This document shows, in pieces, positions 28,845 to 37,290 of a stretch of DNA of 64,000 bases. Positions within the stretch are counted from its first letter, which is position 1. Each line of letters begins with the position of its first letter. Location of the stretch: assembly GCA_965203275.1 (NCBI GenBank), contig OZ241865.1, positions 2,272,001 to 2,336,000 on the forward strand. The letters run 5' to 3'. The notes below the pieces were generated by a model, which was not told the DNA's origin, made no database searches, and saw only the letters and a list, made by a program, of their open reading frames with translations. Origin of the DNA: Bdellovibrionales bacterium. Lineage in GTDB: Bacteria > Bdellovibrionota > Bdellovibrionia > Bdellovibrionales > JAUICD01. The position numbers and the translations under genes are program-made.

Positions 28845-29303
28845 TTAAGGCTTATTTTCTAAAAAATAATCCCAGTTTTCTTTATACTTTTCAAGACTCG
28901 ATAAACTCTTGTTTTCCGGCCACTCGTTTATGTCTTCAACCGGAATTATATAACAATCTCCATTATTGCTATTTACACCAAAGATAATATCACAATCTCT
29001 TTTTGTGTATTTGTACTTTTTACTTTTTGCCTTCCTATCAATTTGTGTTCCTGATCTGCTACCACCCGTAAAATTCAAAATGCCAGTTGAAGTACCTTTT
29101 ATCTGTATTCTTAAAAGTTTTGTCTTCTTACCAGAAATATCTATAATTGCATCATACCTGGCATTTGTTATATCAACCTTAGAACATGCAAAACCTGCCT
29201 TGATCATCCGGCCTATAGCAATAAACTCGTCTGAATTGCCGTTTATAGTTCTAAATTTACCCTTATCTATATTAGTTATGTTCTTTTTCCACTTGTCAGG
29301 CAT
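28845..29303 (-). CDS. PD-(D/E)XK endonuclease (probable restriction partner)
   Basis: GNSDE..A, RYDAIID, RIQIKG; overlaps the end of the C5 MTase. Confidence 0.75.
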   Translation of the reverse strand: MPDKWKKNITNIDKGKFRTINGNSDEFIAIGRMIKAGFACSKVDITNARYDAIIDISGKKTKLLRIQIKGTSTGILNFTGGSRSGTQIDRKAKSKKYKYTKRDCDIIFGVNSNNGDCYIIPVEDINEWPENKSLSSLEKYKENWDYFLENKP

Positions 29304-30286
29304 TCCTTTATTTCCTTTGCTATTTGGAAAACGACAGGAACAGACACACTATTACCTATCTGTTTATATAAATGTGAGTTGGCTATATCAGGTAAGAGAA
29401 AGTCATCAGGGAAACCCTGAAACCTTGCACACTCTCTAGGAGTTAGCTTTCTGATACCATATTTATCTTTTATGAGAGGAACGTTGTGGCCTCCCGTACC
29501 CATATTGGCCGTTAGTGTTGGACAAACGTCCGACTTATTTTCTCTTACATAGGTCCGCCTCCATTGATAAAGAATATTCGGATTTTTTATGTCTTGTTTT
29601 AGTCTTTTGTGAATAGAAAATCTGTGATAATAAAAAGACTCATCCTGTTTATTAGCTAACAAAATATCTTTTATTTTTCTTTTTAGCTTTATAGGTTGAG
29701 GGAATTTAAAGCACGATTGATGTAAAAACCCGACAATATAAATACGTTCTCTTGTTTGTGGAATATTGCCATAATCTTTTGTATTCATTATTTTATAATC
29801 AACACTGTATCCAAGGGTTTTTATGTTCTCTAACATTTGCCTTAAAATTCTTCCTTTATCTAAAGAAGCAAGCCCTTTCACATTTTCTAAAAGAAAACCA
29901 TCTGGCCTTTTTTCTTTTAATATTCTTTGTATTTCAAAAAACAAACATCCTCTTTTATCTTTTAACCCTCTTTTTTCGCCGGCATAACTGAAAGGCTGAC
30001 AGGGAAACCCGGCAAGTAAAATATTATGATCTGGTATGTCTTTAGATGGTATCTTTGTTATGTCACCGCTTGGACTTTCTTTGAAGTTAGCTTTATACGT
30101 CAGTCTAGCCTTTTTATCTATCTCACTGGAAAAAACACACTGACCACCGGCCGCTTCAAATGCTAGTCGCAAACCACCGATACCTGCGAAAAGATCAATA
30201 AACTTTAGCTTATCAGAATGAATATCTGGAGGTCCCATTTTTATACCGGATTTCCTTTTTGTTTTTATTGGATCTTTTTTGGTCAA
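29276..30286 (-). CDS. DNA (cytosine-5) methyltransferase
   Basis: DLFAGIGG, GFPCQPFS, ENVKGL, QTRERIYIVG, YKQIGNSV. Confidence 0.95.
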   Translation of the reverse strand: MTKKDPIKTKRKSGIKMGPPDIHSDKLKFIDLFAGIGGLRLAFEAAGGQCVFSSEIDKKARLTYKANFKESPSGDITKIPSKDIPDHNILLAGFPCQPFSYAGEKRGLKDKRGCLFFEIQRILKEKRPDGFLLENVKGLASLDKGRILRQMLENIKTLGYSVDYKIMNTKDYGNIPQTRERIYIVGFLHQSCFKFPQPIKLKRKIKDILLANKQDESFYYHRFSIHKRLKQDIKNPNILYQWRRTYVRENKSDVCPTLTANMGTGGHNVPLIKDKYGIRKLTPRECARFQGFPDDFLLPDIANSHLYKQIGNSVSVPVVFQIAKEIKECLTSGKRT

Positions 30287-30589: not shown

Positions 30590-31285
30590 TTATTTATTTA
30601 AGCCATCTTGTGTGTTTGATACCTTCTTACCTTGATCAATTATCCATCCATCGTGATCAGTAGCAGTCGGTGAAGCCTTTAAACCAAGATAACCAACAGC
30701 TCCCACAGTGAAAGATATTTGAGTTCCACCATCTGCTATTTCTAAACCATTAGAATCGTAAGTACCACTACAAGTGCTTGTTCCTGCAGTCCAAGTGCAA
30801 GAGTTTCTTGGAGTATTAACCGCGGTTTTACATGTTGCCGCAGTGCTAGGCCCTTCACAATCTAACTTTCCTTTAAAAGCATCATTGGTATTTGTAATCG
30901 TAGCAAGCCAATCAGCACCAACGTTTGGAGTACCAGGGTTCGCTGATCTTGTCGGACCTCTATACCCATCAGGCAAATCAGCACTGGCCGCATCTTTACT
31001 ATCAGAAGTTCTAGCCTGAAAACCAACAGAATAGACTGGAGAATCTCCCTCTAAAGCAAAACCTAACTGGGCCATATCAGACGAAGCAAATCTCCATTCT
31101 GTTATGAATGACTTCTCAGCTACGTACAGACCACTTAATGCTGTTTTAGCCTCTGTTTGCATTGCTCGCTTTTGAAAACGACCATATTGTGGTATAGCAA
31201 TGGCGGCCAGTAGACCAATAATAGCCACGACGACCATTAGCTCGATTAAACTAAAACCTTTTTGATTCTTAATTAAACGTTCCAT
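30590..31285 (-). CDS. pilA: Type IVa major pilin
   Basis: Prepilin motif NQKG|FSLIELMVVVAIIGLLAAIAIP; ATG 31285 after GGAGG. Confidence 0.85.
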   Translation of the reverse strand: MERLIKNQKGFSLIELMVVVAIIGLLAAIAIPQYGRFQKRAMQTEAKTALSGLYVAEKSFITEWRFASSDMAQLGFALEGDSPVYSVGFQARTSDSKDAASADLPDGYRGPTRSANPGTPNVGADWLATITNTNDAFKGKLDCEGPSTAATCKTAVNTPRNSCTWTAGTSTCSGTYDSNGLEIADGGTQISFTVGAVGYLGLKASPTATDHDGWIIDQGKKVSNTQDGLNK

Positions 31286-31402
31286 AATAACCTCCACGGT
31301 TTAAAATAATTCAATTCAATGGACAAGCATTTTTTACTTGCCCTTCTTTACTCTTTAGTTAGGCTTGTTTGTATCTCCCAGATGCTTATTCCACCTAATC
31401 TT

Positions 31403-32161: not shown

Positions 32162-32671
32162 AATCACTGAAAATCTAATTTTTAAACCCAAATTCTCTAC
32201 CTTTTCAAAGAAATCCAGAGAAACGAACACCTTGTTTCCCTAACATGGTATTAAAAAAAGAAGGGATCCTCCTTACTAAAAGTAAACGGACTTTTGAGGT
32301 AGCCAGCCTTTGATCGACGGCGTGAGCCAAAAGGTGTAAGAAAGAACTTTTTCCTTAACATGAAGTAAAAAGAAACGAAGAGATCCTCCTACTAAAAGTG
32401 GTCAAGCTTTCTAGGTTGCCATTGGTGATGAAGGAATTTTTCCTTAACATCATGTTAAAGGACGAAGAGATCCTTCCCTACTAAAAATAAACGGATTTTT
32501 GAGGCATTGCTCTTTTTGGACAGCGATAGCTGTCAGAGCAATGCCCAAAAACAGCCAGAGGCTGGTTTATTTTTAGTGAAAAAGATAAGAAGGCGACAGC
32601 CTTCGGCTGGCAACCAGAAAGTGACCAGAGGTCAGACCACTTTTAGTGAAACAACCACTTTTAGTGAAACA
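32162..32671 (-). repeat. Family A repeat mosaic including module C
   Basis: 32162-32239 is an inverted copy of 28193-28272; full hairpin ~32480-32580; tandem ACCACTTTTAGTGAAACA at the right edge. Confidence 0.9.
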
Positions 32672-33921
32672 ACTCATCAAACCAACGCCTTAGAGTGCTG
32701 ACAGAAATCTTTGTTTGTTTTGCTACTTCTGCAAAGGCTTTTTCAACTCCCATTTCTTTCTTTTTTTCAATAACTAGAGCAATGGTTTCTTCATGATGTT
32801 CTTGATAAAACAAACGTGTCAAATCGTCGACAGAGAACCCTGTTTTCTCTGCTACCTCTGCAATAGCTTTATCAAATGATTCCAGCTCTTTCTTTCTTTC
32901 AATAACTAGAGCTATGGCTTTACTTTTATATTTATAAAACCAATTCCTCAGAGTTCTGGCATGAATCCCTGTTTGCTCTGCTATTTCTGCAATAGCTTTC
33001 ATAATTCCTATCTTTTTATTTATTTTTTCCATCATTAGAGCAACGCCCTCTGCTTTTTGTTCTTTAGAATAATAATTGCGTTTTTTCTTTTTTGAAAAAT
33101 TCCAAAAAGATCGCTTAGCTTGATCTATCAATGGATAGAGTGTACCTTTAATCTGAGCCGGTGTCTTACCATCAAAATACTCTGATAGAAAATGAAAAAT
33201 AGGCGAATGAGTACCCGAGGAAGCTAAAAAGAAATGTTCTGGAAATGTGGGAATCCGAAAAGTCTTATCATATCGTTTTGTCTTATCTCTAATATTTATG
33301 TACCTGACTGCTTTTTCTGTATTACTAAGTTGTAAAATCCGACCATTTTGACGATGTATGTTTCTGATCTCTTCTTCTTTCTCACGAATAGCTAAATTCC
33401 ATAAACGATCAAATCCTTTGTCATAGCCGATCATTCTCAATGTCGATACAGTTTCATTTACATGTAGAAGAAGCAATCCATCTGACTAGAATTCAAAAGG
33501 CTCTGGGTCGCTACTATTTAAACCTATTTTTTCTAAAAGAAATCCTTGAAAATCCCTTAAAATCCCTAGATTTTCTAAAACAACAAACAATGCACTTTTA
33601 TTTTCACCATCACCATCTATATCCATTAAATTTAAACGATAGATGGCTTCATCGGCTGATTGGATTTTTGTCAAAGCTGCAAAGGACATGATAAATATTT
33701 ACTTTTGGGTTTACGCTATTGTTATGTGTCACTTGAGCAATGATTGAAGCTATCTGGAGCATGTTTTGAGCTTCTGGTGAAAGTTCTCTGAACCTTTGAT
33801 GATCTTTATCCAGAGTGGTAAGTAAAACGCCAGGGCAGTCTTCTTGCGGGAGGGCAAATGCCTCACCAACATTGACTACATTGACTACAAAAAATAAACA
33901 TAAAAAATATTTTTTCATCAT
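32661..33921 (-). pseudogene. Disrupted secreted protein with three C-terminal HTH repeats
   Basis: Three ORF pieces joined by a frameshift near 33690-33698 and an in-frame TAG at 33486-33488; N-terminal signal peptide; AIAEIAEQTGI...TLRNW-type repeats. Confidence 0.7.
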
Positions 33922-34073: not shown

Positions 34074-34496
34074 TCCGGGATCCGGGATCCGGCATCAGAA
34101 AGATTTGTTTCCTTAACATCGTGTAAAGAGACGAGAGGATCCTTCCTACTAAAAGTAAACGGACTTTTGAGACATTGCTCTTTTTGGACAGCGTAAGCTG
34201 TCAGAGCAATGTCCAAAAGTAGCCAGAGGCTAGTTTACTTTTAGTGCAAATCAAATGAGGCAATGACCATTTTGTCAACGTGAAGTAAACATCTTGTTTC
34301 CTTAACATCGTGTAAAGAGACAAGAGGATTCTTCCTACTAAAAATAAACGGATTTTTGAGGCAATCAGCCTTTGATCGACGGCGACAGCCGTCGGGCTGA
34401 TTGCCCAAAAAGAGCCAGAGGCTGGTTTATTTTTAGTGAAACAAACGCGGTCATTGTCCAAAAACATGCCAGAGGCATGATGCATTTTGAGTGAAA
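34074..34496 (-). repeat. Family A repeat cluster
   Basis: Heptamer array, B palindromes, full hairpins at ~34148-34247 and ~34337-34441. Confidence 0.9.
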
Positions 34497-34509
34497 GTAA
34501 CAAGCAAAG

Positions 34510-35646
34510 TTAGCTGGAAATGAGCTGATCAAAATAATGAAAGACGGCAGGTGTTGCCCAATTTTCTGTAGAAGCAACCTTTTTAATGAGTTTATGTTCT
34601 CTATTTAAAATATAACTTTCTGGTAATCTCCAAGTTCCCCAACTTTCTGCAATTTGCTTATTTCCATGCAGAATAATAAAATCAGAGGAGTCCATTTCAA
34701 AAGCCTTCATAAAATGAATGATATCTGATTTGTTTTCATCCATAGATATTGCTAAAATTTTTACCTGCCCTTGAAATTTATCCACAAGCTTCAACATAGA
34801 ATCTATCTCTTCTATACAGGGGGAACACCATGTTGCCCAAAAATTTACAATAGTGATAGTCCCTCTCAAATCAGACAAGGACACCAAACGATCATCATCT
34901 GCTATAACAGAAGGTAAACTGAAATTCGATGCCCCTACTTCTTCTAATTGAGATAAAATATTCTGATCTTGAGTGACTGCTTGATCCTTATAACCAACAC
35001 AGTTGCGTGCAACAAAAGCAATAGTTGCCAATAAAACAATCAGAATAAAGGCTATTAAAAGGCCCTTTGTCTTTGGAGTTAAGAAAGACTTTAATCGAGA
35101 CCATAAAGATGGCTTTGTGATCACCTGAGCCTTTACAGGAGTCTTATCTTCTGGCGTTTGATCAGGAGGAAGAGCCTTACCCTTGCTTTCTGGTTGCACT
35201 GGAGGTTTTGCCTTTTTAGCTGGTTTCAACTTGACGACCTCTTTCTGCATGAGCTTGATTCTATCTTCCTTACTTAAAATCAAACCAGGCTCAACCCATT
35301 CAATCAAAGCCATATTGGCATTGTCTCCCATACGACAACCAGACTTAATAATACGTGTATAACCTCCTTTGCGATCCACAAACTGAGGAGCTAAACGATT
35401 AAAAACATCTGCAATGAGTTTCTTGTTAGGATACCTAGCTAAGAGTAACCTTCGTTCATGCAAACCACCTTTCTTAGCTAGAGTGATAAGCTTTTCTGCA
35501 TGTCTTCTGAGTTCTTTGGCCTTCGCTAAAGTAGTTGTGATACGTCCATATTGAATCAAATCAAAGACTAAGTTCCTTAATAAAGACTTCTTATGATTAT
35601 CACTACGGCCAAAACTCTTGCGTTGGACTTTGACTCTATGTCTCAT
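34510..35646 (-). CDS. rplQ: 50S protein L17 fused to a TM helix and a TlpA/ResA-like thioredoxin
   Basis: aa 1-118 L17 (MRHR..., ITTTLAKAKELR, RKGGYTRIIK); Pro/Lys linker; hydrophobic LLIAFILIVLLATIAFVA; NFWATWCSPC...LPESYILNR. Confidence 0.9.
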   Translation of the reverse strand: MRHRVKVQRKSFGRSDNHKKSLLRNLVFDLIQYGRITTTLAKAKELRRHAEKLITLAKKGGLHERRLLLARYPNKKLIADVFNRLAPQFVDRKGGYTRIIKSGCRMGDNANMALIEWVEPGLILSKEDRIKLMQKEVVKLKPAKKAKPPVQPESKGKALPPDQTPEDKTPVKAQVITKPSLWSRLKSFLTPKTKGLLIAFILIVLLATIAFVARNCVGYKDQAVTQDQNILSQLEEVGASNFSLPSVIADDDRLVSLSDLRGTITIVNFWATWCSPCIEEIDSMLKLVDKFQGQVKILAISMDENKSDIIHFMKAFEMDSSDFIILHGNKQIAESWGTWRLPESYILNREHKLIKKVASTENWATPAVFHYFDQLISS

Positions 35647-35667
35647 AAACTTACCTTTATAAATGCT

Positions 35668-37290
35668 CTAATTACTTTGGCCTGTTGATCCCCCACCTTT
35701 CTGATCAGTGGGATCATGTTGATCTGTTGCAGGGTCATAACCATCAGAATGTTCTACAGATCCTTGATCTGTTGGATCTGTTGTGTATCCAGTGGCTCCC
35801 CCTTGACCATATCCACCTTGTCCACCCTGTTGACCATATCCACCTTGTCCACCCTGTTGACCATATCCACCTTGTCCACCTTGTTGACCATATCCACCTT
35901 GTCCACCCTGTTGACCATATCCACCTTGTCCACCTTGTCCTTGACCATGTCCACCCTGCCTTGGATGTCTATATGAAGGATCCTGTCCTCCTTGTTGATT
36001 ATAAGGATCTTGTTGTCCGTACCCACCTTGTCCAGTAGAGGATCTGTACGGATGACCCTCTTGTTGACCATACCCTTCTTGTGCTGGAGCTTCTCCCCCA
36101 TAACCACCTTGTTGCATTGCTCCATATCCACCACCCTGCCCTTGACCATGTCCTCCTACTGGCCCGCCTTCATAAGGTGGCCCAGCAGGTCCACCAGGTC
36201 CAGCAGGTCCACCAGGTCCAGCAGGTCCACCAGAGCCTTGTTGCTGATATCCTGCCCTCATAGCCATGTTTTCATTGTTGTTATCCATCATTTCAATAGA
36301 AGAAGGAGGCCATCCATCAACTCTCATCCCTAAACTCAAATTCATACTTGTAAGTATTTCTTTAATTTCATTTAAGGACTTCCTTCCAAAGTTTTTTGTT
36401 TTGAGCATATCAGCTTCTGTCTTTGTAACAAGCTCTCCAATATAACGAATATTTGCATTTTTTAAACAGTTAGCACTTCTAACTGATAACTCCAAGTCAT
36501 CCACAGATCGAAATAAATTATCATTCAGTTGTGGCATAGCAGCTTCTTTTGCTACCTCTTGTACTTCTACAACTTCATCAAAATTAATAAAGACTTGAAC
36601 TTGCTCTTTGATAATCTTAGCAGCTAGAGTACATGCCTCATCTGGCTTTAAAGATTCATCTGTCCAGATTTCTAAGACAAGTCGATCATAGTCTGTTCTC
36701 TGTCCCACACGAGCATTCCCTACATGGTAATTGACTTTTCGAACAGGACTATACAAACTATCTACAGCAATAAAATCTACTGGTAAATCAGTCTTTTGAT
36801 CAGAATAAAGCACATAACCTCTACCAAACCGGCATATAATTTCAGCATGAAATTTACCATTTTCTCCTAGTGTACATATATGCTGATGAGGATTGATCAC
36901 AGAGATTTTATCATTGACCTGAATATCAGCTGCTGTCACTGGACCTTGCCCTTCTTTAACGATTGTGAGAGTGACAGGCTCTGGAGTAAACTGACGAAAA
37001 CGTACTTCTTTAAGGTTTAAAATAATATCAGTCACATCCTCTAACACATCAGGAATAGTCGTAAACTCATGGAGTACCCCTTCAAAACGCACGGCAGCCA
37101 CTGCCGACCCCATCATAGAACTGAGCAAAACTCTCCGAAGGGAGTTGCCTAAAGTTGTCCCATAACCCCTCTCTAAAGGTGCAATGGTAAACTTCCCATA
37201 ACCATCTGTTAAAGAGTCTTGATCTATGTCAAAAGACTTAGGCTTAATTAGCTTTTGCCAAAATTGATTGTAATGCTTTTGAATTTCCAT
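35668..37290 (-). CDS. rpoA: RNA polymerase alpha subunit with a long Gly/Gln-rich C-terminal tail
   Basis: [44 protein letters not shown]; ~210 extra aa after GWPP. Confidence 0.96.
35803..35940 (-). repeat. 27-nt coding tandem repeat (QGGQGGYGQ) x~5 in rpoA
   Basis: ttgaccatatccaccttgtccaccctg repeated; also an 18-nt GPAGPG repeat x3 at ~36179-36232. Confidence 0.9.

Follow-up and report, generated by a model that had tools for sequence, protein, structure and literature searches.

A ribosomal protein bL17 joined to a predicted membrane anchor and a thioredoxin domain in Bdellovibrionales without detectable signal recognition particle

Can a core protein of the bacterial ribosome also be a protein of the inner membrane? 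The question is raised by one gene in a stretch of 64,000 nucleotides (the window) of contig OZ241865.1 from a Bdellovibrionales bacterium (assembly GCA_965203275.1, positions 2,272,001 to 2,336,000 of the forward strand). At the position of rplQ, the gene for the large-subunit protein bL17 (L17), a single frame runs from L17 through a predicted transmembrane helix into a TlpA/ResA-like thioredoxin domain. The fusion is a genuine, selectively maintained gene and the only L17 gene of its genome, and it occurs in a lineage in which no component of the signal recognition particle (SRP) was detected. With no other L17 to draw on, the cell either lives with membrane-leashed ribosomes or processes an essential ribosomal protein from a membrane precursor, and either would be new for bacteria. 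We put at roughly one in two the chance that L17 stays attached to its anchor, leashes the 50S subunits to the inner membrane and replaces targeting by SRP, as in mitochondria.

Both halves of the protein are readily recognised. The N-terminal half matches the L17 profiles in full (PF01196 at residues 22-118, 119.2 bits against a cut-off of 27, profile positions 1-97 of 97; the NCBIfam model TIGR00059 at residues 12-119, 124.1 bits against 70.05); L17 proteins of family members share 60-67% identity with it, and the closest named sequences are a Bdellovibrionales L17 with 61% identity and a Pseudobdellovibrionaceae contig. Residues 239-360 match AhpC-TSA (PF00578, 59.3 bits), Redoxin (PF08534, 45.4 bits) and Thioredoxin_8 (PF13905, 36 bits), all above their cut-offs. 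The 76 residues from the L17 core to the helix hold 18 lysines and arginines, 11 prolines and 8 acidic residues, and the helix at residues 195-213 is the sole strongly hydrophobic segment of the chain (mean Kyte-Doolittle value 3.01; next best 0.89). Its flanks carry a net charge of +4 over the 15 preceding residues and 0 over the 15 following, and a single strong hydrophobic helix with a positive N-terminal and a neutral or negative C-terminal flank recurs in 11 of 11 fused proteins, which predicts L17 in the cytoplasm and the redox domain outside. A low-confidence AlphaFold2 model suggests L17 elements at residues 16-118, a helix at 126-139, an unstructured stretch at 140-181, a helix at 191-216 and a thioredoxin pattern at 264-377. 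The gene comes last in a normal S13-S11-S4-RpoA-L17 operon on the minus strand, behind the genes for SecY and adenylate kinase. The first-pass annotation, a reading of the DNA letters and their open frames, had described one frame of 378 amino acids at the rplQ position with a complete L17, a Pro/Lys linker, a transmembrane segment and a WCSPC thioredoxin, and had placed L17 inside and the redox domain outside by the positive-inside rule; the profile matches and the flanking charges agree with it on both counts. It had also seen no stop or methionine near the helix, and there is indeed none in frame. Its 18-residue helix is present, at a length of 19-22 residues.

The frame is no product of sequencing or assembly. 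The genome of the window (G000) comprises 2,567,810 bases in a single contig without any N and gives one L17 match, and a profile search found no second L17 in the same-genus genome G001. Contigs assembled by Logan from runs X1 and X2, which belong to two studies, cover 34473..35760 and 34467..35760 of the window with zero differences and with no stop in the linker; X1 is possibly the source sample of the window genome. Two of the outcomes that the first-pass annotation had named as refuting, a stop in the linker and another rplQ to supply the ribosome, were thus looked for and not found. A third study (X7) contains a related strain whose gene keeps the frame; it carries 21 substitutions and two insertions or deletions, each exactly 3 bases long. 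Silent changes outnumber replacements by 17 to 4: the bL17 domain has 7 silent and 1 replacement, the linker 4 and 2 together with one in-frame insertion of 3 bases, and the thioredoxin 6 and 1 together with the deletion of one codon. Assemblies from NCBI, ENA and Logan together yield eleven protein clusters with the fusion, encoded on contigs of up to 2.9 Mb. Given identical contigs in two studies, an in-frame variant in a third, eleven clusters and the lack of any other L17 gene, it is practically out of the question that the frame reflects an assembly error or a recent stop mutation in one genome.

Could the frame still be read as two proteins? A stop or frameshift in the linker would then give free L17, an internal start would give the thioredoxin, and the long frame would be a minor product. 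The linker of the window offers in-frame alternative starts at M133, L140 (TTG), V150 (GTG) and V175 (GTG), and both of its alternative frames contain many stops that a frameshift could reach. Against this, Shine-Dalgarno pairing at the start candidates is weak (-3.3 to -7.0 kcal/mol), G001 has no in-frame ATG, GTG or TTG between codons 139 and 198, and runs of A or of any other base extend to 6 bases at most. Every linker insertion or deletion in the 11 lineages and the strain variant has also preserved the frame, a constraint that two independent cistrons would not face. Two separate products are thus very improbable. Because no internal start is conserved, the Shine-Dalgarno pairing is weak and the runs are short, the thioredoxin would be made only via the rplQ start, and the full-length chain would be the primary product.

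The fusion has been kept through deep divergence. A search of 5.8 billion proteins returned ten full-length relatives with both Pfam domains (54-58% identity) plus two fragments, and the fused relatives fall into four sublineages with a mutual identity of only 56-62%. Much of both domains is invariant or nearly so in the alignment of the fused clade, and the linker, which is free in sequence and length, is never interrupted; it measures 54-78 residues across 11 fused proteins despite many insertions and deletions. All 13 aligned rows have the active-site residues W273, C274, P276 and C277. On the near side of the helix, P179 and the W or F that follows it are nearly invariant within the clade. 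On the far side R214 is invariant, and C216 is nearly so (absent only from P0007); split, unfused relatives have no Cys at this position.

The fusion arose once, when the ancestor of a single genus-level clade lost the stop codon of rplQ. Stop-to-stop analysis of 51 Bdellovibrionota loci found it at two, those of the window genome and of G001. At 46 loci rplQ is followed by a separate thioredoxin gene on the same strand, whose product of ~190-210 residues has its own N-terminal anchor helix; two further loci have no same-strand thioredoxin gene downstream, and one has no L17 on the fragment. This neighbourhood extends over at least 16 families of the phylum, and the two genes are often closely packed. 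In the sister genus g3 (G003 and G004) the thioredoxin ATG lies 2-8 bases past the rplQ stop, and at other loci the rplQ stop abuts or overlaps the thioredoxin start; in some lineages a terminator-like hairpin separates the two. Families f17 and f29 provide seven loci (L112-L118) at which the two genes share a frame and are parted by one stop, with an in-frame TTG or GTG 2-4 codons on and no ATG. Judged by sequence, these pairs look like cases of termination-reinitiation coupling, which would also permit occasional read-through fusion. The g3 L17 proteins have Lys/Ser/Thr-rich tails of 143-154 residues and a total length of 260-272 residues (L010 and L012), over twice the usual size, and the end of the free g3 tail aligns with the aromatic-basic stretch that precedes the helix in the window protein. 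Across relatives the L17 tails range from 24 to 154 residues, so the L17 C-terminus tolerates appendages. When the two domains are concatenated for a tree, a single branch within family f1 sets the 11 fused rows apart (Shimodaira-Hasegawa-like approximate likelihood ratio test, SH-aLRT, 99). Among 1.84 billion representative proteins, scanned without a profile, one representative of the fused clade was returned at 426 bits, the next score being 156 bits, and there was no second L17-thioredoxin fusion. The single branch and the absence of any other fusion from the scan point to a single origin.

Eight proteins were considered as independent fusions and rejected: P0254, P0279, P0330, P0365 and P0391 are tandem thioredoxins, and P0252, P0257 and P0377 carry a double L17. 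The latter three, with two tandem L17 domains in 193-211 residues, are either real or gene-calling chimeras, as is P0109, a protein of 613 residues with a C-terminal L17 after ~490 unassigned residues. In family f15 the rplQ-linked thioredoxin is longer (410-436 residues; L132 547-1779, L135 612-1922); its extra C-terminal ~230 residues match no Pfam family, and an H+-pyrophosphatase gene comes next.

The chief competitor to an attached L17 is that one chain is inserted and a cytoplasmic protease then severs the linker, leaving a soluble, tailed L17 and an anchored thioredoxin, with the fusion acting as a device for 1:1 expression, much like the eukaryotic precursors in which ubiquitin is joined to a ribosomal protein. 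The linker is long, variable, rich in Lys and Pro and predicted to be disordered, and would be an easy protease target. Both proteins function alone, as their separation at most loci indicates, and a fusion of neighbours that were already translationally coupled would alter expression little, while cleavage would spare the cost of anchoring every ribosome. However, the aligned linkers of the fused clade show no conserved cleavage motif. A dedicated site could not have existed at the moment of stop loss, whereas the only copy of the essential L17 had to function immediately, and a cleavage activity would have had to be at hand from then on. Equally long basic tails remain within the L17 frame of relatives, and the length class is conserved; cleavage would also account neither for the loss of SRP nor for the conservation of the aromatic-basic stretch ahead of the helix. 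We consider such a processed precursor a serious but doubtful explanation.

SRP is undetectable in the fused genus and in its sister genus g3. The SRP54-type GTPase domain common to Ffh and FtsY (PF00448) has no match in the window genome and is found in 14 of 14 control genomes; PF00448, PF02978 and RF00169 have no significant match in G000, G001, G003 or G004, in searches whose positive controls were detected in 12-14 of 14 genomes. At a loose threshold the best matches in these four genomes are P-loop fragments with at most 17.5 bits. G002, from another genus of family f1, possesses Ffh, FtsY, FlhF, the Ffh M domain and SRP RNA, its Ffh being a full equivalog (TIGR00959, 582.7 bits against 473.2), and a tblastn search with its Ffh and FtsY against the whole window genome gave at best an E value of 0.014. 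FlhF, too, is absent from the four genomes. Since G000, G001 and G003 are single contigs, assembly gaps are unlikely to be the cause. Elsewhere the system is the rule: within the order, 36 of 41 genomes encode Ffh, and the one further exception beside these four is a 77%-complete assembly in 790 contigs. SRP components are present in the third f1 genus, that of G002, and in 12 other families of the order. The window genome encodes trigger factor and YidC. A YidC2/Oxa1-like ribosome-binding tail was considered as compensation for the loss of SRP and rejected, as the YidC C-terminus is short in all five f1 members (G000-G004). The first-pass annotation had proposed that this L17 could tether ribosomes to the inner membrane; the undetectable Ffh, FtsY and SRP RNA of the lineage lend circumstantial support to that proposal.

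A second, larger clade of the phylum is SRP-less as well, and its L17 tails carry a motif comparable to the aromatic-basic stretch of the first. The Ffh M domain was sought in a phylum sample of 121 genomes, each at least 85% complete. It is absent from families f24 (0/6), f25 (0/6) and f19, f20, f27 and f28 (0/1 each), and from two fragmented assemblies. Five genomes of this second clade (f20, f24, f25 and f27) have no SRP RNA match and one SRP54-type GTPase only; in the three genomes scanned with NCBIfam (f20, f24 and f25) that GTPase scores best as FlhF, in two of them above the cut-off. Example genomes of the clade are G083, G147, G076, G090 and G047. We then counted F and W past the first eight tail residues of L17 at 77 loci, by a criterion set beforehand. 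SRP-bearing genomes have no F or W in 50 of 57 tails (three of the 50 genomes are tail-less), whereas 17 of 18 tails from SRP-less genomes have at least one, and 14 of the 18 have two or three within twelve residues. The sole SRP-less zero is G001, from which the cut at the helix had removed a Y-W. Of the 14 tails in the second clade, 13 have a conserved D-P-F/L...F motif in low-complexity surroundings, with G and basic residues behind it. These patterns suggest, tentatively, that the lineage replaced SRP by hard-wiring its ribosomes to the membrane: an aromatic-basic tail that would bind lipid or the translocon came first, in two SRP-less clades, and in one genus a captured signal-anchor followed.

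The steps by which an attached L17 may have come about can be set out as follows. The ancestral rplQ already encoded a basic tail of some length with a short aromatic-basic stretch at its end, and this tail may have contacted the membrane or the translocon in an SRP-less ancestor. Loss of the stop codon let translation continue into the tightly coupled gene for a membrane-anchored TlpA/ResA-like thioredoxin, and fusion to its signal-anchor would make the contact permanent. The single polypeptide from the rplQ start is predicted to insert with one pass, L17 facing the cytoplasm and the CxxC domain the periplasm. The L17 part would enter the 50S subunit while still attached, each large subunit being held on a leash of ~75 residues at the exit-tunnel side, and permanent proximity to SecYEG/YidC would replace SRP-dependent targeting. 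The thioredoxin would keep a periplasmic job of its own and serve mainly as donor of the anchor. If this is right, the anchored state is self-propagating, because ribosomes already at the membrane make and insert the next L17-anchor chains.

Several observations weigh against an anchored ribosome as the substitute for SRP. Life without SRP does not depend on the anchor, for the sister genus g3 lacks SRP and has no fused anchor either. If all L17 is anchored, assembly of the 50S subunit must finish at the membrane and ribosome and thioredoxin are fixed at 1:1, both of which are costly. Among SRP-bearing genomes, two f26 loci and one f18 locus (G075, G089 and G061) have F-F-type tail stretches, and four others have a single F or up to two W in the tail; G055 is SRP-less and has no clear tail motif. 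As the genomes are related, the comparison of tails with SRP status amounts to two independent losses, not 18. The AlphaFold2 model of the fused protein, built on a shallow alignment, is of low confidence (mean predicted local distance difference test score, pLDDT, 55.9). The fused lineage also appears to be host-associated and repeat-ridden, and its loss of SRP could be plain genome decay; the g3 genomes, of 1.6 Mb, suggest a host-dependent lineage. The fusion might also be an intact but tolerated accident, with leashed ribosomes performing adequately in small, slow-growing, host-associated cells, with no role in targeting and with SRP lost in unrelated decay. It would fit this that both g3 and the second clade live without SRP and without a fused anchor, and that the closed genomes of the lineage reach completeness scores of 90-93%. 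We find it improbable, as the fusion has persisted through deep divergence under purifying selection and an aromatic-basic element of the L17 tail is found in both SRP-less clades but seldom outside them.

Membrane-leashed ribosomes of the kind that we favour have relatives in function. Mitochondria without Ffh and FtsY hold the ribosome stably at the inner membrane through the Oxa1 tail, Mba1/mL45, Mdm38 and Mrx15, and bacterial Ffh partly rescues the loss of a mitoribosome tether (PMC8321541). By analogy, the shared logic would be the lack of SRP, a large subunit at the inner membrane near the exit tunnel, and insertion by proximity. The likeness is one of mode of working: the mitochondrial tethers are separate proteins or peripheral contacts, whereas here a core ribosomal protein would itself be integral to the membrane. 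In Escherichia coli, YqjD, ElaB and YgaM are C-tail-anchored and hold the 50S subunit at the membrane by contacts round the tunnel exit; their binding is non-covalent and belongs to stationary phase, and by blocking the tunnel they inactivate the ribosome (bioRxiv 10.1101/2024.08.16.608256). In contrast, the anchor of the fused L17 would be part of a constitutive, essential subunit and must permit translation. bL17 itself lies at the periphery of the tunnel vestibule, in contact with trigger factor (PMC12752688).

Other systems resemble the fusion in its parts. TlpA, ResA and CcmG (DsbE) share with it the thioredoxin fold, the W-C-x-P-C motif, one anchor helix and an extracytoplasmic orientation, which is predicted here; their anchor is N-terminal, whereas here it is internal, behind a whole ribosomal protein. 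Eukaryotic ubiquitin-eL40 and ubiquitin-eS31 are essential ribosomal proteins encoded only as fusions with an unrelated domain. In these the partner is soluble and N-terminal and is cleaved at a defined site by dedicated enzymes before assembly, whereas no cleavage site is evident here. The L17 'sunset domain variant' of NCBIfam (NF051448) is likewise a normal L17 core with a long C-terminal appendage; the window protein scores 130.3 bits against its cut-off of 280, over model positions 10-140 of 229 only, and four relatives score 106-139 bits. The term 'sunset domain' for L17 was not found in the open literature, and no L17 extension with a transmembrane helix or an exported domain was found described there or, outside the fused clade, among the 5.8 billion and 1.84 billion proteins searched. 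Both halves of the fusion come from textbook families, and their combination is apparently unreported in the open literature. Open-access papers and bioRxiv yielded neither a ribosomal protein that is itself an integral membrane protein nor a report of SRP loss in Bdellovibrionota. To our knowledge, the mitochondrion is the only well-studied natural case of co-translational insertion without SRP. The loss of Ffh, FtsY and 4.5S RNA from closed genomes of 1.6-2.9 Mb thus bears on how co-translational membrane insertion can proceed without it, and an anchored L17, if real, would be a bacterial parallel to the evolution of the membrane-bound mitoribosome.

The thioredoxin half belongs, by its sequence, to the TlpA-like family in a broad sense only. 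Its best solved relatives are 3kcm (an uncharacterised Thioredoxin-family structure, 1.8e-22) and Bacillus subtilis ResA (1st9, 1.6e-17), with further sequence matches in the PDB to TlpA (2.5e-8) and CycY (5.9e-8). None of the NCBIfam equivalog cut-offs is reached (ResA subfamily 73.9 against 170, DsbE 45 against 123.15, TlpA 42 against 230, StoA 42 against 210); the ResA, DsbE and TlpA matches below cut-off begin at the hydrophobic helix. Possible partners encoded in the window genome are SCO1, a ResB-like protein for cytochrome c assembly and a membrane electron transporter of the DsbD type, and with these the cell has the usual reducing pathway of the periplasm at its disposal. A second, weaker thioredoxin paralogue is encoded elsewhere in the genome. 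The first-pass annotation had also suggested that ribosomes might be linked to periplasmic thiol chemistry. We found no support for such a link: the thioredoxin is an old downstream neighbour of rplQ across the phylum and looks like the donor of the anchor. Cleavage at the Cys behind the helix (VARNC), raised there as an alternative, is a weak proposition. A lipobox lies at the end of an N-terminal signal peptide, with small uncharged residues before the Cys. Here the Cys is nearly invariant but the helix is internal, and the residues before the Cys are A-R-N in the window protein and V/F/A-R-S in relatives. Such cleavage would in any case lie past the helix and would not free L17 from the membrane. 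The parts of the fused gene and the features next to it are located in Table 1.

Table 1. Position of the fused gene, its parts and adjoining features in the window
Feature	Position	Strand	Basis
Whole fused gene, rplQ-transmembrane helix-tlpA-like	34510..35646	minus	open frame, 378 codons and stop
bL17 domain, residues 1-119	35290..35646	minus	PF01196 and TIGR00059 matches
Lys/Pro/Glu-rich linker, residues 120-194	35065..35289	minus	composition and length; in the model, helix 126-139 and disorder 140-181
Aromatic-basic stretch directly before the helix, residues 178-194 (K-P-S-L-W-S-R-L-K-S-F...)	35065..35115	minus	alignment
Single predicted transmembrane helix, N-in/C-out, residues 195-213	35008..35064	minus	Kyte-Doolittle, flank charges
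R-N-C just outside the helix, residues 214-216	34999..35007	minus	Cys specific to the fused clade
TlpA/ResA-like thioredoxin-fold domain, residues 239-378	34513..34932	minus	Pfam matches, solved relatives
Active-site W-C-S-P-C, residues 273-277	34816..34830	minus	sequence
Terminator-like hairpin, 31 bases past the stop of the fused gene	34465..34479	minus	pattern scan; within a high-copy repeat
rpoA, directly upstream of the fused gene	35668..37290	minus	RNA_pol_A_bac, RNA_pol_L and RNA_pol_A_CTD matches

The terminator-like hairpin likely marks the end of the alpha operon. The stretch just downstream of the fused gene (34200..34505) contains copies of a short hairpin repeat with C-C-A-G-A-G-G-C loops, and contig depth at 34400-34500 runs into the thousands, against 7-52 across the fused gene. 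The RpoA encoded upstream has 540 residues and ends in a Gly/Gln/Tyr-rich, low-complexity extension of ~210 residues made of G-G-Y-G-Q-Q-type repeats (35668..36300, minus strand); RpoA of the same-genus genome has 393 residues and a short G-Q repeat only. A frame of 271 residues at 32661..33476 (minus strand) contains several tandem helix-turn-helix units with MerR/ISL3-type Pfam matches at residues 131-193, 162-184, 199-223 and 246-268. At 28845..30286 (minus strand) a C-5 cytosine DNA methylase of 336 residues overlaps a PD-(D/E)XK endonuclease-like frame of 152 residues, probably as a restriction-modification pair, and a type IV pilin-like protein with an N-methylation motif is encoded at 30590..31297.

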